64,000 nucleotides of DNA from a virus (taxonomy: Duplodnaviria > Heunggongvirae > Uroviricota > Caudoviricetes). The stretch lies in IMG/VR virus record IMGVR_UViG_3300045051_000014, one strand, 5' to 3'. The notes under the pieces were generated by a model, which worked only from the letters and a program-made list of their open reading frames with translations, did no database searches and was not told the origin of the DNA. The position numbers were made by a program, and so were the translations under genes. Within the stretch, counting starts at the first letter, position 1; every line of letters starts with the position of its first letter. Positions 32,743-52,203 of the stretch are shown here, piece by piece.

Positions 32743-34167
32743 ATGAACGCATCAGCAAAGAACGCATTTGTATCCGCAGCACTCTCAGTGCCGGTTGAGG
32801 CTCGTACTGAAAATGGTATGAAGGCTCAGAAGTCCACCATGTCCGCAATCGTAGACCTGTTCTACATCGTCGGATCTTCGCGTGGTAAGAATCTTTCGCG
32901 CCAGTTCGAATCGGCAATGCAGCAGGATGAAGATCTTGCGCTCCGTATCGCACTGTGGGCGCGTGACGCTCGCGGTGGTGCCGGTGAGCGTGAAGTGTTC
33001 AAGTTCCTCTTGACGCACCTTGAACAGTCGCGTCCGGACTTCCTGTTGAATTCGGGTTTCTTGGCAAAGGTGCCGGAACTCGGACGTTGGGACGACTTGC
33101 TCGTTCTGACTGAGCCACGCATCAAGGCGAAGGCATTCAACCTGATCAAGTCTGCGCTTGAGTCTGGCAACGGACTGTGCGCAAAGTGGATGCCACGTAA
33201 GGGCAAGATTGCGCGTGAGCTTCGCGAAGCATTCGGTATGTCGCCAAAGGCATACCGCAAGACTCTTGTTGGTCTTTCCAACACGGTTGAGCAGAAGCTT
33301 TGTGCGCGTGAATTCGACAAGATCGAATACTCGCACGTTCCTTCGCTCGCAATGTCGCGCTACATGAAGGCATTCTCCAAGAATGACGCAGAGCGTTTCG
33401 TTGCATACCGTGAGTCCTTGAAGAAGGGCGAAACGAAGATCAACGCGAAGGGTGTCTACCCATACGATATCATCAAGGCTCTTCGCCACGGTGCGGACTC
33501 CGCAGTGTGCGATGCGCAGTGGGATGCATTGCCTGACTACATGACTGACGCGAACGTTCTGCCTATGGTAGACGTTTCAGGATCCATGGAGTGTTCGGTT
33601 GGTGGCAACGCTAACCTGTCTTGCCTCGACGTTTCGCTTTCACTCGGACTTTACACTTCGGGACGTAACAAGGGTGCGTTCAAGGACATGTTCCTTACGT
33701 TCTCTGGCGACACGGAACTCAAGAAGGTCAAGGGTACACTCTCGCAGCGTATGGCTCAGATGAACTCTTCTGAGTGGGGCATGAACACGAATCTGCACAA
33801 GGCATTCGACCGAATCCTTGACGTTGCAGTAAAGGGCAACGTGCCACAGGCAGACATGCCAACGGTTCTGTTGATCATGTCGGACATGCAGTTTGACCAG
33901 TGTGCGAAGTACGATGACTCTGCTATGCAGATGATCGAACGCAAGTACGCTGCGGCAGGCTACAAGGTTCCTGTCATCGTGTTCTGGAACATCAGTGCCG
34001 GTGGCAAGGACAACTCGCCAGTATCCTTCAACAAGAAGGGTGTTGCGCTAGTCTCCGGTTGCTCGCCTGCAATCATGAAGGCTGTCCTCGCGGCAGACTT
34101 GGATGATATCTCGCCCGAGACAATCGTGCGCGATGCGGTCGCAATCCCACGGTACGACTACACCTAA
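32743..34167 (+). CDS. rsr: TROVE-domain Ro60-like (Rsr) RNA-binding protein with vWA/MIDAS C-domain
   Basis: 474 aa; HEAT-like TROVE region; MIDAS motif MVDVSGSMECSVGG; RBS AGGAAGGA; terminator downstream. Confidence 0.8.
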   Translation: MNASAKNAFVSAALSVPVEARTENGMKAQKSTMSAIVDLFYIVGSSRGKNLSRQFESAMQQDEDLALRIALWARDARGGAGEREVFKFLLTHLEQSRPDFLLNSGFLAKVPELGRWDDLLVLTEPRIKAKAFNLIKSALESGNGLCAKWMPRKGKIARELREAFGMSPKAYRKTLVGLSNTVEQKLCAREFDKIEYSHVPSLAMSRYMKAFSKNDAERFVAYRESLKKGETKINAKGVYPYDIIKALRHGADSAVCDAQWDALPDYMTDANVLPMVDVSGSMECSVGGNANLSCLDVSLSLGLYTSGRNKGAFKDMFLTFSGDTELKKVKGTLSQRMAQMNSSEWGMNTNLHKAFDRILDVAVKGNVPQADMPTVLLIMSDMQFDQCAKYDDSAMQMIERKYAAAGYKVPVIVFWNISAGGKDNSPVSFNKKGVALVSGCSPAIMKAVLAADLDDISPETIVRDAVAIPRYDYT

Positions 34168-41805: not shown

Positions 41806-41881
41806 GCAAGCGTCGTCTAACGGCTAGGATACTAGACTTTCAATCTGGAAGATGCGGGTTCGAATCCCGTCGCTTGCTCCA
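41806..41881 (+). tRNA. tRNA-Glu(TTC)
   Basis: manual fold: acceptor gcaagcg/cgcttgc, anticodon loop cTTTCaa, T-arm gcgggTTCGAATcccgt, CCA encoded. Confidence 0.75.
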
Positions 41882-42069
41882 ATTTTTCGGAGCGCGGTTA
41901 ATTCTCGCGTTCGAATACTGAGTCGGAAAAAGTCGGGGTTCAATTCCCTGTCATGCGCTTCGGTGTATGGTGGTGTAACGGCAGCACAGTTCCATTTGAG
42001 AGATTCGCGTCACCCGTCGCGACAAGCGAGGTCTGTAACAACAGGCTGAAATTACGGGTAATGAACAAT

Positions 42070-42145
42070 TCCGGGTTGACTAGAGTGGTAATAGCCGCGA
42101 CTGTTAATCGCGTATTCGTAGGTTCGATCCCTACACCCGGAGCCA
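42070..42145 (+). tRNA. tRNA-Asn(GTT)
   Basis: acceptor tccgggt/acccgga, anticodon stem cgcga/tcgcg loop ctGTTaa, T-loop TTCGATC, CCA. Confidence 0.75.
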
Positions 42146-42153
42146 ATTTTTAT

Positions 42154-42228
42154 GGTCCCTTGGTATAACGGCTATTATGCGAAGCTGTCTACTTCGCGAA
42201 ACGGGTTCGACTCCCGTAGGGATCGCCA
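42154..42228 (+). tRNA. tRNA-Asp(GTC)
   Basis: acceptor ggtccct/agggatc, anticodon loop ctGTCta, T-arm acgggTTCGACTcccgt, CCA. Confidence 0.65.
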
Positions 42229-42232
42229 ATTT

Positions 42233-42306
42233 GGGGAGTTAGTATAACGGGATTATTTCTCGCTTGCACCGAGAAGACAAGGGTTCGATTCCCTTACTCT
42301 CCACCA
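42233..42306 (+). tRNA. tRNA-Ala(TGC)
   Basis: acceptor ggggagt/actctcc with G3-U70, anticodon loop ctTGCac, CCA. Confidence 0.8.
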
Positions 42307-42311
42307 ATCAT

Positions 42312-42388
42312 GGGTCTGTCGTATAACGGCATATTATATTCGGCTCTTAACCGATAAGATTAGGGTTCGATTCCCTACAGACCCACCA
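42312..42388 (+). tRNA. tRNA-Lys(CTT)
   Basis: perfect acceptor gggtctg/cagaccc, loop ctCTTaa, T-loop TTCGATT. Confidence 0.7.
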
Positions 42389-42396
42389 ATTACTAT

Positions 42397-42481
42397 GGTC
42401 AAGTATACCGTTAAAGACGCGGAACCGGCTGTAACCCGGTTGTCTCAGACTGGCTAGGAGCGTTACCTAGATTGACCACCA
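42397..42481 (+). tRNA. tRNA-Tyr(GTA)-like, long variable arm, non-canonical T-loop AGCGTTA
   Basis: anticodon stem accgg/ccggt loop ctGTAac; variable hairpin gtc-tca-gac; T-stem ctagg/cctag; one acceptor mismatch. Confidence 0.45.
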
Positions 42482-42491
42482 ATTCATCGTC

Positions 42492-42567
42492 GGGTTCATG
42501 GCGTAACGGCGAGCGCATCGGGCTTTTACCCCGTAAGGTCAGGGTTCGAATCCCTGTGAACCCACCA
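42492..42567 (+). tRNA. tRNA-Lys(TTT)
   Basis: perfect acceptor gggttca/tgaaccc, loop cTTTTac, T-arm agggTTCGAATccct. Confidence 0.7.
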
Positions 42568-42571
42568 ACAT

Positions 42572-42666
42572 GTTCCTGTGGTGTAACGGCAGCACTCCAC
42601 TCTTATAAGGTGGCAATGGCGGCAGATTACCGCATGGTCTAGGTTCGAATCCTAGCAGGAACACCA
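42572..42666 (+). tRNA. atypical 95-nt tRNA-like gene, anticodon ambiguous (TAT or GAT depending on which internal hairpin is the anticodon arm)
   Basis: perfect acceptor gttcctg/caggaac + ACCA, canonical T-arm ctaggTTCGAATcctag, D-arm gtgtaacggcagcac, but two internal hairpins (ccact-cttataa-ggtgg and gcgg-cagatta-ccgc). Confidence 0.45.
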
Positions 42667-42673
42667 GAACAAT

Positions 42674-42748
42674 GCCGGTGTCATCTAATGGCGAAGATGG
42701 TCGCCCGATTAGCGACTCATAAGGGTTCAAGTCCTTTCACCGGTACCA
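42674..42748 (+). tRNA. tRNA-Ile(GAT)-like (C33 instead of U33)
   Basis: perfect acceptor gccggtg/caccggt, anticodon stem gtcgc/gcgac loop ccGATta, T-loop TTCAAGT. Confidence 0.55.
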
Positions 42749-42756
42749 ATTTATTT

Positions 42757-42833
42757 CGGGGTTTAGCTCAGTCTGGTAGAGCGTCTGCTTTGGGAGCAGA
42801 ATGTCAAGTGTTCGAATCACTTATCCCCGACCA
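42757..42833 (+). tRNA. tRNA-Pro(TGG)
   Basis: D-arm gctcagtctggtagagc, anticodon stem tctgc/gcaga loop ttTGGga, T-loop TTCGAAT. Confidence 0.7.
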
Positions 42834-42839
42834 ATTTCT

Positions 42840-42918
42840 GCGAGCGTGGCGTAACAGGCAAACGCGGCAGACTTAAAATCTGCGACATTTGTGAGTTCGA
42901 ATCTCACCGTTCGCACCA
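42840..42918 (+). tRNA. tRNA-Leu(TAA), class-I length (7-nt variable loop, no long arm), A73
   Basis: acceptor gcgagcg/cgttcgc, D gcgt-aacaggcaa-acgc, anticodon gcaga/tctgc loop ctTAAaa, T-arm gtgagTTCGAATctcac. Confidence 0.65.
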
Positions 42919-42927
42919 AAGTATAAT

Positions 42928-43002
42928 GCGGGTAAGGTGTTAATAGATACACGGCGGTCTTCCAAACCTCAGTTGTGGGCGCGATACCCACTACCCGCTC
43001 CA
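42928..43002 (+). tRNA. tRNA-Gly(TCC), T-loop CGCGATA
   Basis: acceptor gcgggta/tacccgc, loop ctTCCaa, discriminator U + CCA; resembles phage-type tRNA-Gly. Confidence 0.7.
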
Positions 43003-43131
43003 ATTTGCTCGTTGATCGGTGAGCCTGACGGCAGATCCGCAAATGTCAAATGCGTTGGTTCGCATTCCGGCTCTCTCCATACAGCGGGAGAGTATCGGGT
43101 AAGACGGTTCGATTCCGCAGCAAAACAATTT

Positions 43132-43207
43132 GTCCTCATAGCATAACGGAAAGTGCGTCGGGCTTCTACCCCGTTCGGTGTGGGTTCGATTCCTACTGAG
43201 GACACCA
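43132..43207 (+). tRNA. tRNA-Arg(TCT)
   Basis: perfect acceptor gtcctca/tgaggac, loop ctTCTac, T-arm gtgggTTCGATTcctac. Confidence 0.7.
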
Positions 43208-43213
43208 AATTAT

Positions 43214-43289
43214 GTTGGGTTAGTATAACGGCTATTACAGCAGTCTCCAAAACTGCACGATGGGAGTTCGAATCTCTCACCCAACGCCA
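43214..43289 (+). tRNA. tRNA-Trp(CCA)
   Basis: perfect acceptor gttgggt/acccaac, anticodon gcagt/actgc loop ctCCAaa, G73. Confidence 0.8.
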
Positions 43290-43301
43290 ATCACAAACAA
43301 T

Positions 43302-43379
43302 GGGACGTTGAAGGGAACTGGTATACCTTTCACGCTTAGAACGTGAAGCTTCTCGGTTCGAATCCGAGGCGTCCTACCA
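43302..43379 (+). tRNA. tRNA-Leu(TAG), class-I length, A73
   Basis: D aagg-gaactggtat-acct, anticodon tcacg/cgtga loop ctTAGaa, 5-nt variable, T-arm ctcggTTCGAATccgag. Confidence 0.6.
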
Positions 43380-43530
43380 ATGCATAGGTTGTCAACAAAC
43401 CTCAATAGACGTAAGAGAAAACCTTACGGTGATGAAATCGTGTTGAACGCACTCTTCATGCGTCATAGTCTTAAAGCGATAAGACAGGAGCGTTGTCTCG
43501 GATACGTAACCGGGGCGGCTATTCAACAAT

Positions 43531-43605
43531 GCCCTCTTAGTATAACGGAAAGAATACTTCGCTACGAACGAAGAGGTAGGGGTTCGATTCCCTTAGAGGG
43601 TACCA
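43531..43605 (+). tRNA. tRNA-Arg(ACG)
   Basis: anticodon cttcg/cgaag loop ctACGaa, T-loop TTCGATT. Confidence 0.7.
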
Positions 43606-43610
43606 ACATT

Positions 43611-43685
43611 GTCTCTGTAGTGTAATGGAAAACACGCAACTCTCCGAAGGTTGTAATTCAGGCTCGACTCCTGACAGGGACACCA
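43611..43685 (+). tRNA. tRNA-Arg(CCG), T-loop CTCGACT
   Basis: acceptor gtctctg/cagggac, anticodon caact/ggttg loop ctCCGaa. Confidence 0.65.
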
Positions 43686-43687
43686 AT

Positions 43688-43762
43688 GGTGATATCGTAC
43701 AACGGCTAGTACCGAAGTCTCATAAGCTTTTAATGATGGTTCGATTCCATCTATCACCACCA
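43688..43762 (+). tRNA. tRNA-Met or Ile2 (CAT), elongator-type
   Basis: perfect acceptor ggtgata/tatcacc (G1-C72 so not initiator), loop ctCATaa. Confidence 0.7.
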
Positions 43763-43768
43763 AATTAC

Positions 43769-43843
43769 GCCGAGTAAGCATTGCAAGCGATGCAGGGGTC
43801 TTGTAAGCCTCAGAATGCGGGGCAGTACCGCAACACGGCACCA
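43769..43843 (+). tRNA. tRNA-Thr(TGT), non-canonical T-loop GGCAGTA
   Basis: acceptor gccgagt/acacggc (one A-A mismatch), D gcat-tgcaagcg-atgc, loop ctTGTaa. Confidence 0.5.
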
Positions 43844-43848
43844 ACTAT

Positions 43849-43924
43849 GTAAGCGTGGCAGACCGGCAGATGCAGCAGGTTGCAACCCTGTTTTAAGTAG
43901 GTTCGACTCCTATCGCTTACTCCA
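43849..43924 (+). tRNA. tRNA-Cys(GCA)
   Basis: perfect acceptor gtaagcg/cgcttac, loop ttGCAac, U73, T-loop TTCGACT. Confidence 0.75.
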
Positions 43925-44020
43925 AACAAGCTGATGCGGGGTTCGACACCCCTGATGATCGCTAGAGGGTTGCAAACTTCTAACGACTAATGAAGGACGC
44001 TCATCGGCTCTAAACACAAT

Positions 44021-44094
44021 GCCCGATTCGTAAAATGGCATTACCTCGCTTTTACACGGCGAAGTTGGCAGTTCGATTCTGTCATCGGGTACCA
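44021..44094 (+). tRNA. tRNA-Val(TAC)
   Basis: acceptor gcccgat/atcgggt, D gtaa-aatggca-ttac, anticodon tcgct/ggcga loop ttTACac. Confidence 0.7.
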
Positions 44095-44165
44095 AACACA
44101 GCAAACGTTATGCGTTTCAAAGGGAGCGGCTGCAAAGCAAACTGGCTTCCACCAATTCAGACAAT

Positions 44166-44241
44166 AGCGGAAGGGTGAAACGGTTTACATTCTAGCCTCA
44201 TAAGCTAGAGACATTGGGTTCGACTCCCATGACCGCTACCA
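44166..44241 (+). tRNA. tRNA-Met(CAT)-like with imperfect acceptor (5 bp + AA/GA mismatches at 6-67,7-66)
   Basis: anticodon ctagc/gctag loop ctCATaa, T-loop TTCGACT, ACCA end. Confidence 0.45.
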
Positions 44242-44247
44242 AACAAT

Positions 44248-44328
44248 GTCCCAAAGAGAGCGAACGGAACGCCTGTTGCCATTGGCAATGCAAGCTAGCT
44301 ACGGTTTCGATGCCGTTGCGGGACACCA
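44248..44328 (+). tRNA. tRNA-like element, anticodon undetermined (possible pseudogene)
   Basis: acceptor gtccc(aa)/(gc)gggac + ACCA, aacgg D-loop, no clean 7-nt anticodon loop, odd T-region tttcgatg. Confidence 0.3.
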
Positions 44329-44333
44329 ATTAC

Positions 44334-44407
44334 GTCCGATTAGCTTAAAAGTGAAGCACCGTGCTGATAACGCGGAGAAGTAGGAGCATTACCTACATTG
44401 GACACCA
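44334..44407 (+). tRNA. tRNA-Ile(GAT), T-loop AGCATTA
   Basis: acceptor gtccgat/attggac, D gctt-aaaagtg-aagc, anticodon ccgtg/cgcgg loop ctGATaa (canonical Ile loop). Confidence 0.6.
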
Positions 44408-44512
44408 ACTACATTCAGCGCACAAACTCTTGCCATTTAAACGGGCGAGTATGCAGAGTGCGGTCCTGCGTCAACAGGGCGAAGCGATTTTGACGAATCG
44501 TAGACTGCGTGC

Positions 44513-44587
44513 GCCGCCATAGTATAATGGTCATTACAAGGTCTTGGTAAGACTTGAATCACAGTTCGATTCTGTGTGGTGGCACCA
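44513..44587 (+). tRNA. tRNA-Thr(GGT)
   Basis: acceptor gccgcca/tggtggc, loop ttGGTaa, T-arm cacagTTCGATTctgtg. Confidence 0.75.
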
Positions 44588-44592
44588 ACAAT

Positions 44593-44678
44593 GCGGAAGT
44601 AGCCTAGCGGTTAGGCACTTGCTTGCCAAGCAAGAGTGCGAAAGCCAAACGCGAGTTCGAATCTCGTCTTCCGCTCCA
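44593..44678 (+). tRNA. tRNA with anticodon GCC (Gly) but 86 nt with ~16-nt variable region
   Basis: perfect acceptor gcggaag/cttccgc, class-II-like D-arm gcc-tagcggtta-ggc, anticodon cttgc/gcaag loop ttGCCaa, extra agtgcgaaagccaaac before T-arm. Confidence 0.5.
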
Positions 44679-44679
44679 A

Positions 44680-45279
44680 TTAGCGTGGATCGTACCTGTA
44701 ATCAGAATGATACATGTTGACGATCCCGCGTCTTAGCTCAGAAGTAAGTTCAAGGTTAGGTATGAAGTTCGGCTTTTCGTTTTCAACGGGAATGTCGATT
44801 GCCATGCCGCCGAAGATACCAATGAGTTTTCTGGCTTCCGATTCGAAGTCATGAAAGTTGAGAACGTTCATGTTAGGATGATCAAACCAATCGGACTGCG
44901 GCTTGAAGCCAATAATGTCGGTGCGTTGAATCCTCTCTAGCAGACGATCCGGATGATTCATCTTATCTCTTAGATGTTGCGGAAGAGCGTTGTATGATTC
45001 TTCATCCAACGGTTCCGGCATACGAATACCAGTGAATGATTCGGGAAACAGTTTGATCAGGACGGTTCGATACGTGCGCAGAAAGTTGTACGCGGATACG
45101 AAACGTTCTACAGGGTCACGCCAGAAAGCGTAACCACTTGAATCTAAATACGCAGTGCTTGGAGTCTCATGCAGACTTCCGACATTCCTGCCGTAAGGTT
45201 TCAATAAGTTTCGAATGGTAGTCGAACCAGTTTTCGGCACCAGATAGAATGCGTGCTTGTTGTCATGACTAATGATCAT
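44680..45279 (-). CDS. sulfotransferase-family protein (PAPS-binding PKTGSTT motif)
   Basis: N-terminal FYLVPKTGSTTIRNLL resembles sulfotransferase 5'-PSB loop; only sizeable minus-strand gene, embedded in tRNA array. Confidence 0.55.
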   Translation of the reverse strand: MIISHDNKHAFYLVPKTGSTTIRNLLKPYGRNVGSLHETPSTAYLDSSGYAFWRDPVERFVSAYNFLRTYRTVLIKLFPESFTGIRMPEPLDEESYNALPQHLRDKMNHPDRLLERIQRTDIIGFKPQSDWFDHPNMNVLNFHDFESEARKLIGIFGGMAIDIPVENEKPNFIPNLELTSELRRGIVNMYHSDYRYDPR

Positions 45280-45439
45280 GCACGTATTTAGGGGAAGATC
45301 ATGAACTTCGAAAGAAACAGAGCATATTACTGGCGGCAGGCGCGAGCATGTTTCAAAGCCGGTTTCAAGTTCCTTCGAAGAGCAATCTTCCTTCCAAAAA
45401 GATAATGTCTCTTAAGCTAATCTAGTGAAAGCGCAGGTC

Positions 45440-45590
45440 TGAAAAGCCTGATAGGTTGGAGCGTAACCAACAGGGGACACCAGTTTCGGGATGTTTACAG
45501 CAAACCAAATACCTCGCCAAATCTGAGGGGCTGTCCAATGGGGACTGTGCGCTAGGGTTCGAATCCCTGCCTACTAGCACAACCATCCCG
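45440..45590 (+). ncRNA. tRNA-like / Y RNA-like module (ACAGCAAACCAAAT + T-arm-like GGTTCGAATCCC, no CCA)
   Basis: motif at 45497-45510; hairpins cctc..gagg, gtcc-aatg-ggac; TTCGAAT T-loop at 45557-45571 without matching acceptor. Confidence 0.4.
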
Positions 45591-45775
45591 TCTAATTGAT
45601 TGTCGCGTCACTGAAATTGAACGTGCGGACATATCGCAGCACTGAGGACATATGTTATTCCCCGCGTGGGCGAGCTTGGAGTCTTCTGCCGACAATCAAC
45701 TTTATAGAGTCAACGGATGAAATGACCTCCCTTGTGGTGCGGCAATAGCCGTATAAAAAATCCGTCGAATTCAAT

Positions 45776-45852
45776 GCACCGGTCTTCTAATAGGATAGGA
45801 AAACAGGTTCTCAACCTGTGCAATGACGGTTCGAATCCGTTCCGGTGTACCA
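45776..45852 (+). tRNA. tRNA-Glu(CTC)
   Basis: acceptor gcaccgg/ccggtgt, anticodon acagg/cctgt loop ttCTCaa, T-loop TTCGAAT. Confidence 0.65.
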
Positions 45853-45859
45853 AACATAA

Positions 45860-45934
45860 CAGGATGTAAGTCAACAGCAGACGACCTCGCTTGGAACGAG
45901 GAGGCAGTAGGGGCAGCACCTACCATCCTGACCA
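45860..45934 (+). tRNA. tRNA-Pro(TGG) second copy, T-loop GGCAGCA
   Basis: perfect acceptor caggatg/catcctg, anticodon cctcg/cgagg loop ctTGGaa. Confidence 0.55.
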
Positions 45935-45986
45935 ATTCATACTACATAGTAGACCATATGGACTACTTTGTAGTCCAAAGATCAAT

Positions 45987-46063
45987 GGTAAGTGTAGCAT
46001 AGTGGCTAATGCCCAAGACTGTGAATCTTGAAGACGCGGGTTCGAATCCCGTCGCTTACCCCA
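45987..46063 (+). tRNA. tRNA-His(GTG) with encoded G-1
   Basis: extra 5' G pairing with C73, loop ctGTGaa, T-arm gcgggTTCGAATcccgt. Confidence 0.75.
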
Positions 46064-46083
46064 AACACAAATGGAGCGAAACC

Positions 46084-46269
46084 ATGGCTGCGAAGAACGA
46101 TGTAACAGGTGATAGTATCAAAACTAAGACTGGCAATCCTGATGCGTATGCAAAGGGTTGGGATCGAATCTTCGGCAGTAAACGAACAAAGGACCGTACA
46201 CCTTCCGGTGAGCTTGCTGAACCGGTGCGCCGCAGGGCTGCGAACAAAGTACGGGCTAAGAACAATTGA
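46084..46269 (+). CDS. small basic protein (61 aa) nested between tRNA genes
   Basis: ATG with GGAG RBS 7 nt upstream; MAAKNDVTGDSIKTKTGNPDAYAKGWDRIFG... Confidence 0.35.
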   Translation: MAAKNDVTGDSIKTKTGNPDAYAKGWDRIFGSKRTKDRTPSGELAEPVRRRAANKVRAKNN

Positions 46270-46350
46270 TGGGTTGACGGTGCCGGTAACTGTCCCTAGT
46301 CTTTGAAACTAGTGCATTGCGCGTAGGTTCGACTCCTACCCCATCAGCCA
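46267..46350 (+). tRNA. tRNA-Gln(TTG) with enlarged D-loop and 10-nt variable region
   Basis: perfect acceptor tgatggg/cccatca, anticodon ctagt/actag loop ctTTGaa, T-arm gtaggTTCGACTcctac. Confidence 0.5.
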
Positions 46351-46616
46351 ATTTGCCTCTAGAGCAAAAACAACGAGTCATGTTACGTTGTAAAATAAGA
46401 ACATGCAACCATGTGCTGAAAGCAGACGGCTAACGTGCTGTCTCTCTAGCACCCACCGTTGTAGGTGGGAGTGCGGAGTGGAGTAAGAGTGGTGGTAGTA
46501 ATTGATTCCGAGATAGTTCAATAGGCAGAACAACCTCACGCTAAGAGGGAGACAGGGTTCGAATCCCACCGGAATTAGTGGCGCGGCTTCCAAGAATACC
46601 AAACGCGCCCAACTTT

Positions 46617-46690
46617 TCTCCTCTCGTCTAACGGCAGGACGCAACGCTCTGAACGTTGCTATCGTGGTTCGAATCCATGGGGGAGAGCCA
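46617..46690 (+). tRNA. tRNA-Gln(CTG)
   Basis: acceptor tctcctc/ggggaga, D gtct-aacggca-ggac, anticodon caacg/cgttg loop ctCTGaa. Confidence 0.7.
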
Positions 46691-46699
46691 AATTTAAAT

Positions 46700-46787
46700 G
46701 GAAGGTTGTCCGAGAGGCTTATGGACCCTGTTTGCTAAACAGTGGGGCGTTAAAACCACACAGGTTCGAATCCTGTACCTTCCGCCA
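46700..46787 (+). tRNA. tRNA-Ser(GCT), class II
   Basis: perfect acceptor ggaaggt/accttcc, G73, loop ttGCTaa, long variable arm, T-arm acaggTTCGAATcctgt. Confidence 0.7.
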
Positions 46788-46795
46788 AAACAAAT

Positions 46796-46883
46796 GGAAG
46801 ATTGACCGAGAGGCTTATGGTTCCCGCTTGGAAAGCGGTGAGATGTAAAAGTCACGCAGGTTCGAATCCTGCATCTTCCGCCA
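46796..46883 (+). tRNA. tRNA-Ser(GGA), class II
   Basis: perfect acceptor ggaagat/atcttcc, G73, anticodon ccgc/gcgg loop ttGGAaa, long variable arm. Confidence 0.7.
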
Positions 46884-47001
46884 AATGCAGTATAGGAAAG
46901 TATCCGAATCCAAGAGAGCCTATACCTCGCTGACGGATTCAGCCGCGCTACGTGTTGAAATGCACGGTAAAGCCGACGCGGACAAAAGTAATCGGCACAT
47001 T

Positions 47002-47075
47002 CGTCCCTTAGTATAGAAGCAATACGTTGCCTTGACATGGCAGAAAAGATGGAGCGTTACCATCAGGGACGACCA
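47002..47075 (+). tRNA. tRNA-Val(GAC), T-loop AGCGTTA
   Basis: perfect acceptor cgtccct/agggacg, D gtat-agaagca-atac, anticodon ttgcc/ggcag loop ttGACat. Confidence 0.6.
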
Positions 47076-47080
47076 ATTAT

Positions 47081-47168
47081 GGAAGGTTGGCAGAGAGGCT
47101 AATTGCCGCTGTTTCGAAAGCAGATGGGTGTAAAAACCACACAGGTTCAAATCCTGTACCTTCCGCCA
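47081..47168 (+). tRNA. tRNA-Ser(CGA), class II
   Basis: paralogous to Ser(GCT) gene (same acceptor and T-arm), loop ttCGAaa. Confidence 0.65.
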
Positions 47169-47173
47169 GATAT

Positions 47174-47250
47174 GCGAGTGTGATGTAACTGGCAAACGTG
47201 TTCGGCTCAAACCCGAATTTCTGTGGGTTCGAATCCCACCACTCGCACCA
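47174..47250 (+). tRNA. tRNA-Leu(CAA), class-I length, A73
   Basis: perfect acceptor gcgagtg/cactcgc, anticodon ttcgg/ccgaa loop ctCAAac, 5-nt variable, T-arm gtgggTTCGAATcccac. Confidence 0.65.
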
Positions 47251-47255
47251 ACTAC

Positions 47256-47332
47256 GCGCCTATGACGGAACAGGCATACGTCTAACGTTGAGAACGTTAG
47301 TTTTGTGGGTTCGAATCCCACTAGGCGCACCA
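47256..47332 (+). tRNA. tRNA-Leu(GAG), class-I length, A73
   Basis: perfect acceptor gcgccta/taggcgc, anticodon taacg/cgtta loop ttGAGaa, same T-arm as Leu(CAA). Confidence 0.65.
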
Positions 47333-47624
47333 ATTTACTGAGTCGAGCTAACGCAGGCAACTGAGGAAGTTCGCGACTCACGCAGGAATCGTGTGGGAGC
47401 CGAAAGGCGTCTTACCACCGTGATATAGTGAGCAACACAAACAGAGCGTGGGAAATTCCTGCCTATACGTTCGGGTTGTGGCAAAGATGAATGTTAGCAT
47501 AGAACAGAATCGCGGCTACGGACTCAGTAATTCGAAATAGCTAACCCATACGTGTCAAAAGGATATGTCCGAAACAAGCGTAATTCGAATGAGGCTTGTT
47601 AGACGGTGGGTTGGCGGTACCTAT

Positions 47625-47701
47625 ACCCTTGTAGTTTCAACGGACAGAACACCCCGGTCCTAACGGGTCCAATGCAGGTTCGAATCCTGTCAAGGGTACC
47701 A
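47625..47701 (+). tRNA. tRNA-Arg(CCT)
   Basis: perfect acceptor acccttg/caagggt, loop gtCCTaa, T-loop TTCGAAT. Confidence 0.6.
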
Positions 47702-47709
47702 CACATTAC

Positions 47710-47784
47710 GCCGCCATCGTATAATGGCTATTACGGATGTTTCGTAAGCATCCTATCTCAGTTCGACTCTGAGTGGCGGCACCA
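47710..47784 (+). tRNA. tRNA-Thr(CGT)
   Basis: acceptor gccgcca/tggcggc, anticodon gatgt/gcatc loop ttCGTaa, T-loop TTCGACT. Confidence 0.75.
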
Positions 47785-47787
47785 GTT

Positions 47788-47840
47788 AAATGTCCAGTAT
47801 AGTGTACAAATACCCCGGTTTTGTCCATTATAGTGTACAA
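47788..47840 (+). repeat. direct repeat GTCCA(G/T)TATAGTGTACAA x2
   Basis: 47790-47807 and 47823-47840. Confidence 0.5.
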
Positions 47841-47849
47841 GTCTATTAT

Positions 47850-47937
47850 GGAAGACTAACCCAACAAGGTTGGGACTCGCCTTGAAAGCGATGGGATGTC
47901 GAAAGGCATTGGGGCGCGATACCTCAGTCTTCCGCCA
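47850..47937 (+). tRNA. tRNA-Ser(TGA), class II, T-loop CGCGATA
   Basis: perfect acceptor ggaagac/gtcttcc, G73, loop ctTGAaa, long variable arm. Confidence 0.6.
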
Positions 47938-47944
47938 ATTTGGG

Positions 47945-48075
47945 GAAACGTCCAGCAAATCAAAATACTTTACTTGTAATAAAGCAAAACCGTTTCCCGC
48001 CGATTTGAGAAAGCGTACAGCAAACCAAAGCAATCCTCTGTAAAAGGACAGGATGGGGTTCGAATCCCCACGCGC
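47945..48075 (+). ncRNA. tRNA-like / Y RNA-like module (ACAGCAAACCAAAG + T-arm tggggTTCGAATcccca, no CCA)
   Basis: motif at 48017-48030; T-arm at 48055-48071; no D/anticodon arms. Confidence 0.4.
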
Positions 48076-48194
48076 TCCACCGTTCGACGGAGCAGTAGTG
48101 TAATGGTAGCACGGTAACGCAAAAAACGCTTTCTGCCCTTTCCTAAATAGTCCTATTCGGGACTATGTGGTAAATAGTCCCTTGGAGGACTATC

Positions 48195-49744: not shown

Positions 49745-50323
49745 GTGTGTTTTATGACTCCTAAGATTCTAATTGCAGACAGCGCAGGCAACCCTAAAGA
49801 TTGGGTTTCTCTTGACTACGCAACCCACTACCTCGCATCCGATAAGGTTGTGTGGCAGGCAGGTTCGATCATCAAGACCTACCGTGGCGGCTACAATGCT
49901 GCGACGGGCGAACGCTCGACTCTGGACATTCACTCCATCCTAGGTATTTCCGGTAAGCTGCTAGGCGACAAGTTCTTCACCAGAACTTCCGTCTACACCG
50001 ACCGTGAGATTCTCTACGCTCGCGACAGATACCTCTGCGCGTACTGTGGAGAAGAGTTCGATGCGTACAAGCTTACCATCGACCACGTAATGCCGCAGTC
50101 TCGCGGTGGACGTAACGTTTGGCAGAACTGTGTTACTGCGTGCAAGACATGCAACCACAAGAAAGCCGACCGCACGCCAGAAGAGGCGAAGATGAAGTTG
50201 CTGTATGTTCCATACGCTCCTAACATGTTCGAAAAGATGATTCTTAAGAACCGCAACATCCTTGCGGATCAGATGGACTTCCTCAAGGCTCGCGTCCCTA
50301 AGACCTCTAGAGTCTTCCTGTAA
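49745..50323 (+). CDS. HNH endonuclease
   Basis: CAYCG...TIDHVMPQSRGG...NCVTACKTCNHKK HNH/zinc motif. Confidence 0.7.
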   Translation: MCFMTPKILIADSAGNPKDWVSLDYATHYLASDKVVWQAGSIIKTYRGGYNAATGERSTLDIHSILGISGKLLGDKFFTRTSVYTDREILYARDRYLCAYCGEEFDAYKLTIDHVMPQSRGGRNVWQNCVTACKTCNHKKADRTPEEAKMKLLYVPYAPNMFEKMILKNRNILADQMDFLKARVPKTSRVFL

Positions 50324-50473: not shown

Positions 50474-50863
50474 ATGACTACTAAGCCTGTCTTTTGGATT
50501 CAGGGACTCCATATTACTGAGGGTCCGGAACTCCTGCGCAAGTGTTTCACCGAAACTCGTATCTGGCGCGGCAACGATCCGCGTCCGATTGTTCTCGGCG
50601 GCGACGGTTATTGGCAGTGGGGCGTTTCTGCGTACCGCAACAACCACAAGGGTTTTTGTTGGACTCAGGCTCTTCACGATGGTCTGGAAGGTTTCCATTC
50701 GACCATCTTTCACAGTGACCCCGACGCACGTTTTTGCGTGCATTCGGGTCATGCCGACTATGCTCACGTTGAGCGTATTTGGAATCTGGTCAACGAAAAT
50801 GTTGCAGTGCCAGATGATTTCCCCGACGAGTTCGGCGGCATCGGCAAGGCAGGAGTTTGCTAA
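50474..50863 (+). CDS. hypothetical protein
   Basis: 129 aa, TATAAT-like box upstream within repeated element. Confidence 0.5.
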   Translation: MTTKPVFWIQGLHITEGPELLRKCFTETRIWRGNDPRPIVLGGDGYWQWGVSAYRNNHKGFCWTQALHDGLEGFHSTIFHSDPDARFCVHSGHADYAHVERIWNLVNENVAVPDDFPDEFGGIGKAGVC

Positions 50864-50867
50864 GATT

Positions 50868-51317
50868 ATGGGAATTCTATATATTATCAGGGGTGTGTCT
50901 GGTTCGGGCAAGACGACTCTCGCGCAGAAGATGGCAATCGAAAAGGGTTGCCAGTATTTTGAAGCTGACATGTGGTTCGTGCGCGGCGACGGTGAATACA
51001 TTTTCGACGCTCGCGAACTGCCGCGAGCGCACCGGTGGTGTCAGGATCAGGTGCGCAATGAGATTGCGAACGGTCGGGATGTTATCGTGTCGAACACGTT
51101 CACCCGCGAATGGGAAATGCAGGAGTACATTCGCTGCGCTTCCCTTCACAACTATCACACGGTAGTCATTGAGTGCCGTGGACAGTATCCGAATGTACAT
51201 GGATTGACCGAAGAGGCAGTAGCGAAACAGGTAGCACGCTTCGAAAGCAATGACGAGATTCGCGCAAGGAATTCTCGTTATGACGATGGACACGTTACCT
51301 TTCTACTGAATGATTGA
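50868..51317 (+). CDS. P-loop polynucleotide kinase-like protein (Pnk kinase-domain-like)
   Basis: Walker A IIRGVSGSGKTTLA at N-terminus, ~150 aa; adjacent to RNA-ligase-like and phosphoesterase genes. Confidence 0.55.
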   Translation: MGILYIIRGVSGSGKTTLAQKMAIEKGCQYFEADMWFVRGDGEYIFDARELPRAHRWCQDQVRNEIANGRDVIVSNTFTREWEMQEYIRCASLHNYHTVVIECRGQYPNVHGLTEEAVAKQVARFESNDEIRARNSRYDDGHVTFLLND

Positions 51318-52203
51318 AATGCATGTGATAGACAGACAGTTGCGCGAGTTTGCTGAGTCCAATCCGGACTTAGTATCCGTTCGCGTTTCTCTTCGCTATC
51401 CGCGTCTGCGCGTAGTGAAGTACAAGCACAAGGTTTTCTACAAGTCTCTCTGGACTCCTGAGTTGTGCGAAATGCGCGGCTTAGTTGTCGATGAAGACTG
51501 GAACGTGATCGTGCGTCCGTTCCGCAAGATTTTCAACCGCTTCGAAAACGGCACCGACTTCCCATTGGATGCCGACGTTGCGGCTGCGCGTAAGGTCAAT
51601 GGCTTTATGGCAGGCTTGACGGTGGACGATGAATACGGAACGATTGTTTCGACAACGGGTTCGTTGGATTCGCCATTCGTTGCGATGGCTGAGAAGTATT
51701 TGCTGCCGTTGAAGGATCGCGGTCTGATCAACGGTGTGACCTATCTGTTCGAAATTGTGGACCCACAGGATCCGCATATCATCGAAGAGAAGGTCGGTGC
51801 GTACCTGATTGGTGCGCGAGCAGTCTGTTCGAAGATCACGCTCCTAGAGTGTGACTTGGACGAGATTGCAGCAGGAATGGGTGTCATGCGTCCCGAGTGG
51901 AAGCGTGCGCCGTTCGCTGAAATTGTCGCGGAGACTAAGGCTTGCAAGCATGAGGGTTTCGTGTGTTACGACACTTCGAACGGTCATGCGCTCAAGATCA
52001 AGTCTCCGTATTATCTAACTAAGAAGTTCTTTTCGCGGGTTCGACCAGAGAAGTTGACGGTGGATTGGCTACAGGCTAATCGCGGTAACTTTGATGAAGA
52101 GTTCTACGGATTGATCGACTATATCTCTGCAAGCCGAGACTTTTTCGTTGCTATGTCTCCGGAAGATCGGCGTGCATACATTGAGGATTATTTGTCACTA
52201 TGA
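51310..52203 (+). CDS. ATP-dependent RNA ligase-like nucleotidyltransferase (motif I KVNG)
   Basis: AAARKVNGFMAGL lysine-nucleotidylation motif variant; 297 aa. Confidence 0.45.
   Translation: MIEMHVIDRQLREFAESNPDLVSVRVSLRYPRLRVVKYKHKVFYKSLWTPELCEMRGLVVDEDWNVIVRPFRKIFNRFENGTDFPLDADVAAARKVNGFMAGLTVDDEYGTIVSTTGSLDSPFVAMAEKYLLPLKDRGLINGVTYLFEIVDPQDPHIIEEKVGAYLIGARAVCSKITLLECDLDEIAAGMGVMRPEWKRAPFAEIVAETKACKHEGFVCYDTSNGHALKIKSPYYLTKKFFSRVRPEKLTVDWLQANRGNFDEEFYGLIDYISASRDFFVAMSPEDRRAYIEDYLSL

Follow-up and report, generated by a model that had tools for sequence, protein, structure and literature searches.

The tRNA array and its eight unusual genes

The window analysed here is a stretch of 64,000 nucleotides from the IMG/VR virus record IMGVR_UViG_3300045051_000014 (Caudoviricetes), apparently a part of a large phage genome, with nearly all open reading frames (ORFs) on the plus strand and with genes coding for ribonucleotide reductase and nicotinamide phosphoribosyltransferase. 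On its plus strand, at 41806-47937, it carries a tRNA array comprising 39 cloverleafs ending in CCA in 6.1 kb. In 31 of them the elbow, where the T- and D-loops meet, has U55 and the D-loop GG, while in the remaining eight the T-loop is not of the TTC type and the elbow bases are changed; these eight genes, called here alternative-elbow genes, are the subject of this work. The 39 cloverleafs, found between 41806 and 47937, come from a scan of our own that required N73 followed by CCA, an acceptor stem of 7 bp and, directly 5' of its 3' strand, a T stem of 5 bp with a loop of 7 nt; ARAGORN gives 32 tRNA genes on the same strand, between 41806 and 47784. With 39 cloverleafs at ca. 6.4 per kb the locus falls within the definition of long tRNA arrays (L-arrays), set at no fewer than 20 tRNA genes and no fewer than two per kb (PMC4758250).

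The eight T-loops share the consensus N54-G55-C56-R57-N58-N59-A60, closed by G53-C61, and each gene has a fully paired 5-bp T stem, a 7-nt T-loop, a discriminator base and an encoded CCA. The general dimensions are those of a cloverleaf, with 7 bp in the acceptor stem, 5 bp in the anticodon stem and 7 nt, including U33, in its loop, besides the T arm just described. The change in the T-loop is accompanied by one in the D-loop, which contains GG in all the canonical tRNAs of the array (e.g. AACGGCTA) and AG in all eight genes with an altered T-loop. Instead of the canonical tertiary set G18 G19 / T54 Psi55 C56 / A58 they carry A18 G19 and N54 G55 C56, with G19, C56, R57 and the G53-C61 pair retained. 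Positions 54 and 58 are A and T in the Tyr, Ile, Phe, and Val genes, C and A in Gly and Ser, and G and G in Thr and Pro, while position 60 is always A. Gly and Thr have, in addition, A8/T14 where U8/A14 is usual.

All eight genes lie on the plus strand. The first, at 42397-42481, is tRNA-Tyr(GTA)-like, with the T arm CTAGG AGCGTTA CCTAG, a long variable arm, and A73 before CCA; it is the least well-formed member of the group, complying only partly with the cloverleaf because G7.A66 is mismatched and the D stem, of 3 bp, is weak, and neither ARAGORN nor Rfam calls it. tRNA-Gly(TCC), at 42928-43002, has the D-loop TAATAGAT, containing A18 G19, the T-loop CGCGATA, and U73 with CCA (Rfam score 38.3 bits). 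In tRNA-Thr(TGT), at 43769-43843, the D-loop is TGCAAGCG and the T-loop GGCAGTA, the acceptor stem has an A5.A68 mismatch, and A73 precedes CCA. tRNA-Ile(GAT), at 44334-44407, with the D-loop AAAAGTG and the T-loop AGCATTA, scores 48.9 bits; a canonical Ile-GAT is also present, at 42674. tRNA-Phe(GAA), at 45407-45482, comprises the D-loop AATCTAGTGAA and the T-loop AGCGTAA (41.2 bits). tRNA-Pro(TGG), at 45860-45934, with C1-G72, A73, the D-loop AACAGCA, and the T-loop GGCAGCA, likewise has a canonical Pro-TGG counterpart, at 42757. The last two are tRNA-Val(GAC), at 47002-47075, with the D-loop AGAAGCA and the T arm GATGG AGCGTTA CCATC (43.9 bits), and the type II tRNA-Ser(TGA), at 47850-47937, with a long variable arm, the D region ACC CAACAAGGTT GGG, the T-loop CGCGATA, and G73 with CCA. 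Six of the eight genes carry anticodons that no other gene of the array has, and Phe and Tyr are supplied in the window by alternative-elbow genes only.

A preliminary description of the locus had listed seven of these genes, and the scan together with the cloverleaf parse located each of the seven at the position and with the T-loop given there; the eighth member, Phe-GAA at 45407 with the loop AGCGTAA, had been overlooked. The perfect acceptor stems ascribed to the genes are found in six of the eight, the exceptions being the Tyr-like and Thr genes with the single mismatches mentioned above.

Register, fold and detection by gene finders

When 12 such genes from the window, the related contigs L001 and L003 (see below), and Anabaena were aligned and folded by RNAalifold with no guide, a cloverleaf with a 7-nt T-loop in the register described above was obtained, with compensatory changes at 19 of its 21 pairs. 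In this structure 94.9% of the alignment cells are paired, vs 58% in shuffled alignments and 33-45% when the pairing partners are slid, and none of 500 shuffles reached as high a value. Folded singly by minimum free energy (MFE), each of the eight sequences likewise forms its T hairpin in this register. Ten of the 12 aligned genes have the pair G19-C56; its absence from the remaining two reflects an alignment shift in Phe. A shifted register hiding a canonical T-loop, which the preliminary description had named as the outcome that would undo its reading, was excluded by the parse, RNAalifold, and the MFE folds alike, and no TTC is present in or beside any of the eight T-loops.

The unusual loops affect detection. 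ARAGORN calls one of the eight genes, and four (Ile, Val, Phe, and Gly) pass the gathering score of 29 bits of the Rfam tRNA model, while the Tyr-like, Thr, Pro, and Ser-TGA genes go unreported. Read as a T-loop structural motif at the level of sequence, four of the loops have A and U swapped at motif positions 1 and 5, R57 is kept, and A18 is available as an intercalating base; for the C.A and G.G combinations at these two positions the geometry would have to come from a structure.

Conservation and exchange in related contigs

Four related IMG/VR contigs were retrieved through the protein encoded just 3' of the array (Pfam GP88). In L001 and L002 this protein is 94% identical and the tRNA array is syntenic. 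Five of the eight genes are conserved in the L001/L002 array, the Pro gene with a differing T arm, and another one in L003. The Ile (AGCATTA), Phe (AGCGTAA), Val (AGCGTTA), and Ser-TGA (CGCGATA) genes have kept their D- and T-loops, and the changes in their stems are compensated: in the Ile ortholog (L001:5328-5398, 92% identical) a change in the anticodon stem is fully compensated, in the Phe ortholog (L001:6459-6531) those in the acceptor and anticodon stems, and in the Ser ortholog (L001:9316-9400, 95% identical) that in the variable arm. The Val ortholog (L001:8415-8485) has an acceptor stem entirely different yet paired, with the D-loop and the T arm unchanged. In L003 (1818-1888) the Val T arm is found on a tRNA with a CAT anticodon.

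The remaining slots tell of replacement. The Tyr, Gly-TCC, and Thr-TGT slots are occupied in L001 by canonical tRNA genes of the same specificity, which are only 58%, 65%, and 60% identical to those of the window, respectively, vs 85-100% identity of the flanking orthologs. The Pro(TGG) orthologs (45860-45931 in the window and 6793-6864 in L001) are 86% identical with about 10 differences, of which eight fall within the 17-nt T arm (GTAGG GGCAGCA CCTAC in the window vs GGTGG AGCGTTA CCACC in L001) and two elsewhere, which suggests a T-arm-specific conversion or a very fast local change. The canonical genes at the same slots and the patch in the Pro T arm imply an exchange of alternative-elbow and canonical versions, in the form of cassettes or patches, at set positions of the array. 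Judging by these comparisons, the alternative-elbow genes appear to behave as functional equivalents moving between arrays. Their origin could not be read from the stems: with the loops masked, identity to genes of the same anticodon is 0.68-0.81 for alternative-elbow and 0.60-0.79 for canonical relatives, giving no clear separation of the two, as tRNAs are too short for this purpose.

In searches outside these contigs, megablast of 20 kb gave only trivial matches among GenBank phages and no close relative, blastn with the Ile alternative-elbow gene gave no match at all, and a distant blastn search with the array found only ordinary Ser and other tRNAs.

Distribution of the alternative elbow and covariation of the two loops

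The T-arm pattern GGAGCGTTACC-N10-ACCA was used to scan IMG/VR, where at least 120 viral contigs matched, and GTDB contigs taken at one genome per species; prevalence figures obtained in this way are rough, and the counts below refer to the matches listed. Roughly 80 loci among the 120 viral matches are bona fide CCA-ending cloverleafs with an alternative loop, almost always located in arrays beside canonical tRNAs, and the loop types of the window recur in more than 100 unrelated contigs. Tyr homologues in other viral contigs combine the AGCGTTA loop with a D-loop containing TTAAAGA.

The 1,117 distinct cloverleafs collected from the matched viral loci include GGCAGYA and CGCGATA as well as further non-canonical loops. 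In ATCGTTA, positions 54 and 58 are switched to A and T with U55 and the D-loop GG kept; in TGCRANT, G55 is the only change and is paired with the D-loop AG; and ATCGAAA, found in phage Glu, Asp, and His tRNAs, has the sequence of the eukaryotic initiator T-loop.

Covariation between position 55 and the D-loop was counted leaving out the tRNAs that had themselves matched the search pattern. In the viral loci U55 occurs with GG in 910 tRNAs and without it in 30, while G55 occurs with GG in eight and without it in 93, of which 89 have AG; the respective numbers in the bacterial loci are 41, 4, 36, and 366. In a control phage sample, ascertained independently on a canonical T arm, they are 299, 14, 0, and 7. 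Positions 54 and 58 in the viral loci are T/A in 895 tRNAs, A/T in 82, A/A in 31, and T/T in one, and a base other than U at 54 is accompanied by A60. Among CCA-encoding phage tRNAs the control background is ca. 2% for G55 and ca. 5% for A54/U58, so the 8 of 39 genes in the window lie roughly ten-fold above the former value.

About half of the matches listed from GTDB belong to Verrucomicrobiota. That Verrucomicrobia and other phyla have long tRNA arrays is already known (PMC8421152). The Verrucomicrobial arrays found here consist almost wholly of tRNAs with G55 and the AG D-loop (14/14 in L125, 16/17 in L130, 16/16 in L209, 21/21 in L229, and 19/19 in L239), mostly with TGCRANT and some with the loop types of the window; ordinary chromosomal genes flank them on either side, and the contigs reach 5 Mb in length. 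The D-loop signatures are isotype-specific and common to the Verrucomicrobial and other arrays, T(A/G)A(T/G)AGAT for Gly-TCC and GTTAAAGAC for Tyr. The Verrucomicrobial Gly-TCC genes have TGAGAGAT or TGATAGAT D-loops together with CGCG(A/C)TA T-loops, and the Phe D-loop AATCTAGTGAA recurs unchanged in L069. A8/T14 in place of U8/A14 is also found in other array tRNAs of the viral and genome loci examined. In Verrucomicrobial Arg-TCG and Arg-TCT tRNAs positions 54-56 are TGA or TGG and the D-loop has an A-pyrimidine, so that in some of them, as judged by eye, the 19-56 pair is possibly switched to pyrimidine-purine.

Identity elements and the Anabaena precedent

Features by which tRNAs are recognised for aminoacylation have been preserved. 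In the window the identity elements, the discriminator, and the 3' CCA are in place, e.g. C1-G72 and A73 in Pro, U73 in Gly, and G73 with the long arm in Ser. Across the whole class of alternative-elbow tRNAs, G3.U70 is present in 8/8 Ala and C1-G72 in 25/25 Pro tRNAs, the discriminator is G73 in 28/28 Asp, 30/30 Asn, and 11/11 Trp tRNAs and U73 in 28/28 Cys tRNAs, and the Ser and Tyr members retain their long variable arms.

Two alternative-elbow genes belong to the trn operon of plasmid pCC7120delta from Anabaena PCC 7120 (NC_003273; L245, 837-908 and 3010-3084, both on the minus strand). One, not called by ARAGORN, is tRNA-Ile(GAT), with the D-loop GAAAAGTGA and the T-loop GGCAGTA, the same as that of Thr in the window; the other is tRNA-Glu(CTC), whose T-loop is TGCAACT. 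Of the 26 tRNAs of the operon 23 were detected and charged in vivo, including tRNA-Ile(GAU), which migrated aberrantly in the gel, and tRNAs of the operon were found in the polysome fraction (PMC8421152). The aberrant migration of tRNA-Ile(GAU) may be related to its unusual elbow. By analogy with the Anabaena operon, the alternative-elbow tRNAs of the window should be charged and used by the ribosome.

RNase P-like RNA and other features of the locus

Within the array, at 47336-47529 (plus strand), lies a minimal RNase P RNA-like gene of 194 nt, which matches the Rfam model RNaseP_arch with 48.2 bits and an E value of 2e-11 (gathering score 84). It contains the core motifs CR-I GAGGAAGUUCG and ACAGAA, while a segment of ca. 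89 nt corresponding to the S-domain is replaced by ca. 15 nt. Counterparts are present in L001/L002 (8864-9057), L003 (145-338), L005 (2424-2619), and L046 (5326-5508), and the RNA is conserved in five phage contigs, for which RNAalifold gives 17 compensatory pairs. Judged by eye, the P4 pseudoknot covaries as well (CGCGA/UCGCG vs CGGGA/UCCCG). The literature search turned up no report of an RNase P RNA encoded by a phage. A specific coupling of this RNA to alternative elbows was considered and rejected, since it also occurs in contigs such as L005 whose tRNAs are nearly all canonical; in the Verrucomicrobial arrays it was not found by a search based on sequence only.

Just 3' of the array the plus strand codes, at 49745-50323, for an HNH endonuclease and, at 50589-51317 and 51310-52203, for an AAA_33-type P-loop kinase and an Rnl1-family RNA ligase, respectively. 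The HNH gene, together with the cassette replacement relative to L001, corresponds to the mobility signature of L-arrays, which comprises a homing or HNH endonuclease nearby and a patchy distribution. The kinase and ligase resemble the Pnkp/Rnl1 pair of T4 that repairs cleaved tRNA.

Three tRNA genes of the array are oversized: Ile(TAT) at 42572-42666, 95 nt with a long extra arm and kept in L001, Gly(GCC) at 44593-44678, 86 nt, and Gln(TTG) at 46267-46350, 84 nt, whose best Rfam match is tRNA-Sec with a sub-threshold 33.7 bits. The gaps contain tRNA-like remnants or odd elements at 44166-44238, 46507-46574, 48009-48078, ca. 45497, ca. 48017, and 43000-43131, with Rfam tRNA scores of 36.7, 22.3, and 26.5 bits among them. 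The motif ACAGCAAACCAAA is repeated 5' of two canonical-looking T arms in the gaps, and one gap element may be a tRNA-like RNA that lacks a D arm and has GTA in its anticodon loop. The sole sizeable minus-strand ORF within the array (44680-45279, 199 aa) has a weak match to Sulfotransfer_2 (E 3.7e-7).

Inside the G55/A18 arrays of four Verrucomicrobial contigs lies a conserved 479-aa TROVE (Ro60-like) gene (L229 6271-7710, L185 4825-6264 and, on the minus strand, L130 2454-3893 and L239 3130-4569), and two matches to YrlA-like (Y RNA-like) RNAs, at ca. 41 bits and E ca. 1e-6, below the gathering score, precede it in L229 (5534-5601 and 6074-6181). Gene and RNA matches inside the array together point to a Ro60/Y RNA module within a tRNA array. 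The window itself codes at 32743-34167 for a 474-aa protein with the Pfam domains DUF2828 and DUF7788, labelled 'RNA-binding protein' by PHROGs (phrog_850). Its similarity to the Verrucomicrobial TROVE protein is weak (E 0.004, in the vWA region), it has no relative in PDB by sequence, and no YrlA-like RNA was found upstream of the window array; these comparisons give no link of this phage to Ro60.

Proposed explanation and alternatives

The eight genes very probably code for genuine, working tRNAs with a compensated alternative elbow, as indicated by their conserved fold, the covariation of the two loops, and the identity elements. The corner of a standard tRNA is held by three contacts, the reverse Hoogsteen pair U54.A58, G18.Psi55, and G19-C56, and G18, U54, and Psi55 are regarded as near-invariant in non-mitochondrial tRNAs. 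In the proposed elbow the outer G19-C56 platform would be retained, the 18-55 contact would be swapped as a unit from G.U to A.G, and the 54-58 pair would become A.U, C.A, or G.G, with A60 throughout. On established knowledge of tRNA structure the L-shape and the stacking platform would survive these changes, and the ribosome, EF-Tu, RNase P, and the CCA-adding enzyme, which read shape and backbone, should still accept such tRNAs. The eight tRNAs have no U at position 54 or 55, which makes m5U54 and Psi55 impossible in them, and proteins reading the universal G-T-Psi-C/GG bases, such as TrmA, TruB, TrmH, and T-loop-cutting tRNases, should miss them. The preliminary description was thus right in direction in stating that the loops may alter T54/Psi55 modification or elbow interactions, with 18-55 and 54-58 altered and G19-C56 kept, and its view of the loops as unlikely products of random decay is borne out by the conservation with compensated stems, the D-loop covariation, the identity elements, and the report of charging in Anabaena; the change of the D-loop partner and the spread beyond the window had gone unremarked there.

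Several points weigh against this interpretation. For the A18.G55 contact, covariation is the sole basis; the sequences in the covariation counts are related, so that p-values overstate their independence, and positions 18 and 19 were assigned by the GG or AG motif in the D-loop and not by a structure-based alignment. The Ile-GAT and Pro-TGG genes duplicate canonical ones and could be dispensable, and the Tyr-like gene at 42397, with its 7-66 mismatch and weak D arm, may be defective. In the case of the Anabaena tRNA-Ile, the aberrant migration in the acid gel could not be distinguished from misacylation by the authors (PMC8421152).

The view of the eight as decaying pseudogenes, or as tRNAs drawn in a wrong register, draws on the seven genes missed by ARAGORN and four by Rfam, the single acceptor-stem mismatches of the Tyr-like and Thr genes, and the presence of real tRNA remnants in the array (e.g. 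44166-44238 and 48009-48078). It is extremely improbable and effectively refuted for the class, given the conservation with compensatory changes, the D-loop covariation, the retained identity elements, the absence of TTC in or near the loops, and the register recovered by RNAalifold and MFE folding; it may apply to the Tyr-like gene alone. A role off the ribosome, with the tRNAs or tRNA mimics serving as amino-acid donors or as ligands or decoys of a Ro60-type RNA quality-control protein, is improbable. It is suggested by the staphylococcal non-proteogenic tRNA-Gly, which has UGC/UGU for UUC and few modifications (PMC7826273), by the TROVE/Ro60-like gene and YrlA-like RNAs within Verrucomicrobial alternative-elbow arrays, and by the RNA-binding label that PHROGs gives to the DUF2828/DUF7788 protein of the window, but nearly all isotypes are covered and their identity elements are correct, Phe and Tyr are represented in the array by this class alone, relatives interchange the genes with canonical isoacceptors, the T stems are ordinary in appearance, and the tRNAs of the Anabaena operon are found on polysomes (PMC8421152). 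Even less probable is a driver acting on DNA, in which the T-arm sequence, the most conserved stretch of a tRNA gene, is targeted by homing endonucleases of the array, so that altered T arms are immune to cleavage and the D-loop compensates in the RNA. HNH genes do adjoin the arrays, SegB of T4 is said to favour cutting inside tRNA genes (PMC8421152), and the cassette and T-arm-patch differences between close relatives resemble conversion tracts; however, no cleavage site is known, a change of specifically U54 and U55 throughout almost a whole chromosomal array would not be needed for immunity, and ordinary variation at positions 57, 59, and 60 would provide it more cheaply.

Two further explanations concern the reason for which such tRNAs exist. 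In the neutral one, which deserves serious consideration while falling short of probable, the alternative elbow is an equivalent structure stemming from one lineage of mobile arrays and spread by recombination or homing, and the phage acquired it in cassettes. The replacement of canonical by alternative-elbow isoacceptors at the same slot with 58-65% identity among neighbours of 85-100%, the T-arm-only patch in tRNA-Pro, the isotype-specific D-loop signatures common to Verrucomicrobial and other arrays, and the HNH endonuclease genes beside the arrays both here and in Anabaena (PMC8421152) are in line with it. Simple neutrality does not, however, account for a design found at ca. 2% in an unbiased phage sample and nearly fixed in Verrucomicrobial arrays, nor is common descent demonstrated, as stem-only similarity does not clearly split the alternative-elbow genes from their canonical relatives. 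Adaptive escape, which is compatible with the eight genes being working tRNAs, is a tentative proposal: the elbow bases would have been changed against readers of T-Psi-C/GG, likeliest tRNA-cutting toxins or anti-phage nucleases with the T- or D-loop as their target, to give a protected back-up pool of tRNAs. What speaks for it is that normally invariant pairs have been switched with the pairing potential kept (18-55, 54-58, some 8-14, and 19-56 in Verrucomicrobial Arg), as if selected to differ and yet to fit, that whole Verrucomicrobial arrays are of the G55 type, that a kinase and an Rnl1-type RNA ligase adjoin the array, and that the class is enriched ca. 10-fold in the window (8/39 vs ca. 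2% G55 in the control phage sample). Moreover, a toxin, CdiA-CT E479, cuts the T-loop between T and Psi (PMC9086364), and long tRNA arrays are induced by translational stress and aid recovery from it (PMC8421152). On the other hand, no T-loop nuclease has been identified in this system or its host, protection would be partial with 31 of the 39 array tRNAs still canonical, and canonical genes at three matching slots in close relatives point to two nearly equivalent types more than to strong selection. With most array tRNAs canonical and the two types swapped freely among close relatives, the spread of an equivalent design by neutral means is no less likely than an escape function. In its fullest form, a speculative one that we regard as doubtful, the escape proposal describes a mobile class of 'stealth' tRNAs, functional on the ribosome and evading T-loop/D-loop nucleases and modification enzymes, which would form a protected back-up pool in phages and stress-induced bacterial arrays and would possibly be matured by the S-domain-less RNase P RNA of the array.

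Comparison with known systems

No description of A18/G55 or A54/U58 tRNAs of phages or arrays was found in the literature searched in full text; the word 'T-loop' occurs nowhere in PMC8421152, PMC4758250, and PMC5966550, nor does 'G18' in the first of them. The array of the window shares with the long tRNA arrays described in these papers a dense, one-strand arrangement of about 40 genes, encoded CCA, a nearby HNH endonuclease, and horizontal exchange. It differs from them in its location in a large phage-like genome and in having one fifth of its tRNAs of the alternative-elbow type.

The staphylococcal tRNA-Gly also has G55 (UGC/UGU for UUC) and is devoid of pseudouridine, with very few modifications, but it keeps U54, is limited to Gly, and serves cell-wall synthesis (PMC7826273). 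In the window genes U54 is replaced in all eight, position 58 is changed as well, eight amino acids are represented and not only one used by a Fem-type transferase (the search for a Fem-like gene covered the scanned ORFs), and their look is that of ordinary decoding tRNAs. The UGC type is common in the Verrucomicrobial arrays and absent from the window. A base other than U at 54 together with A60 is known from the eukaryotic initiator (A54, A58, A60), which, however, retains Psi55 and G18 and has A54.A58 (PMC7912444), whereas the class described here has G55/A18 and A54.U58, C54.A58, or G54.G58 and comprises elongator isotypes. The lack of the G18G19 and T-Psi-C consensus is shared with tRNA-Pyl and type II mitochondrial tRNAs, which still function; in these, the contact is lost or re-routed and the loops are shrunken (PMC7609411), while the window genes have G19-C56, canonical loop sizes and stem lengths, and 18-55 covariation. 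They are thus set apart from the type in which the contact is lost, with neither G19-C56 nor D-loop/T-loop covariation.

In the T-loop libraries selected in vivo by Zagryadskaya, Doyon and Steinberg (2003/2004), alternative 54-58 combinations were reportedly functional provided that the purine-trap geometry was kept. Those variants were obtained by laboratory selection in one suppressor tRNA, while the variants of the window are natural, extend across isotypes, and are linked to the D-loop. Individual features of the alternative elbow have precedents, and what appears to be new is their combination, i.e. canonical dimensions with G19-C56 kept, the A18.G55 covariation, and the switched 54-58 pair, in nearly all isotypes and in both bacteria and phages. 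It provides the structural biology of the elbow with a natural compensatory series and with a class of tRNAs that must be devoid of m5U54 and Psi55. It also explains an under-count of tRNAs by gene finders in phage and array regions, which in the window concerns the sole tRNA-Phe and tRNA-Tyr, and it allows a test of the idea that mobile arrays harbour tRNAs resistant to attack on tRNA.

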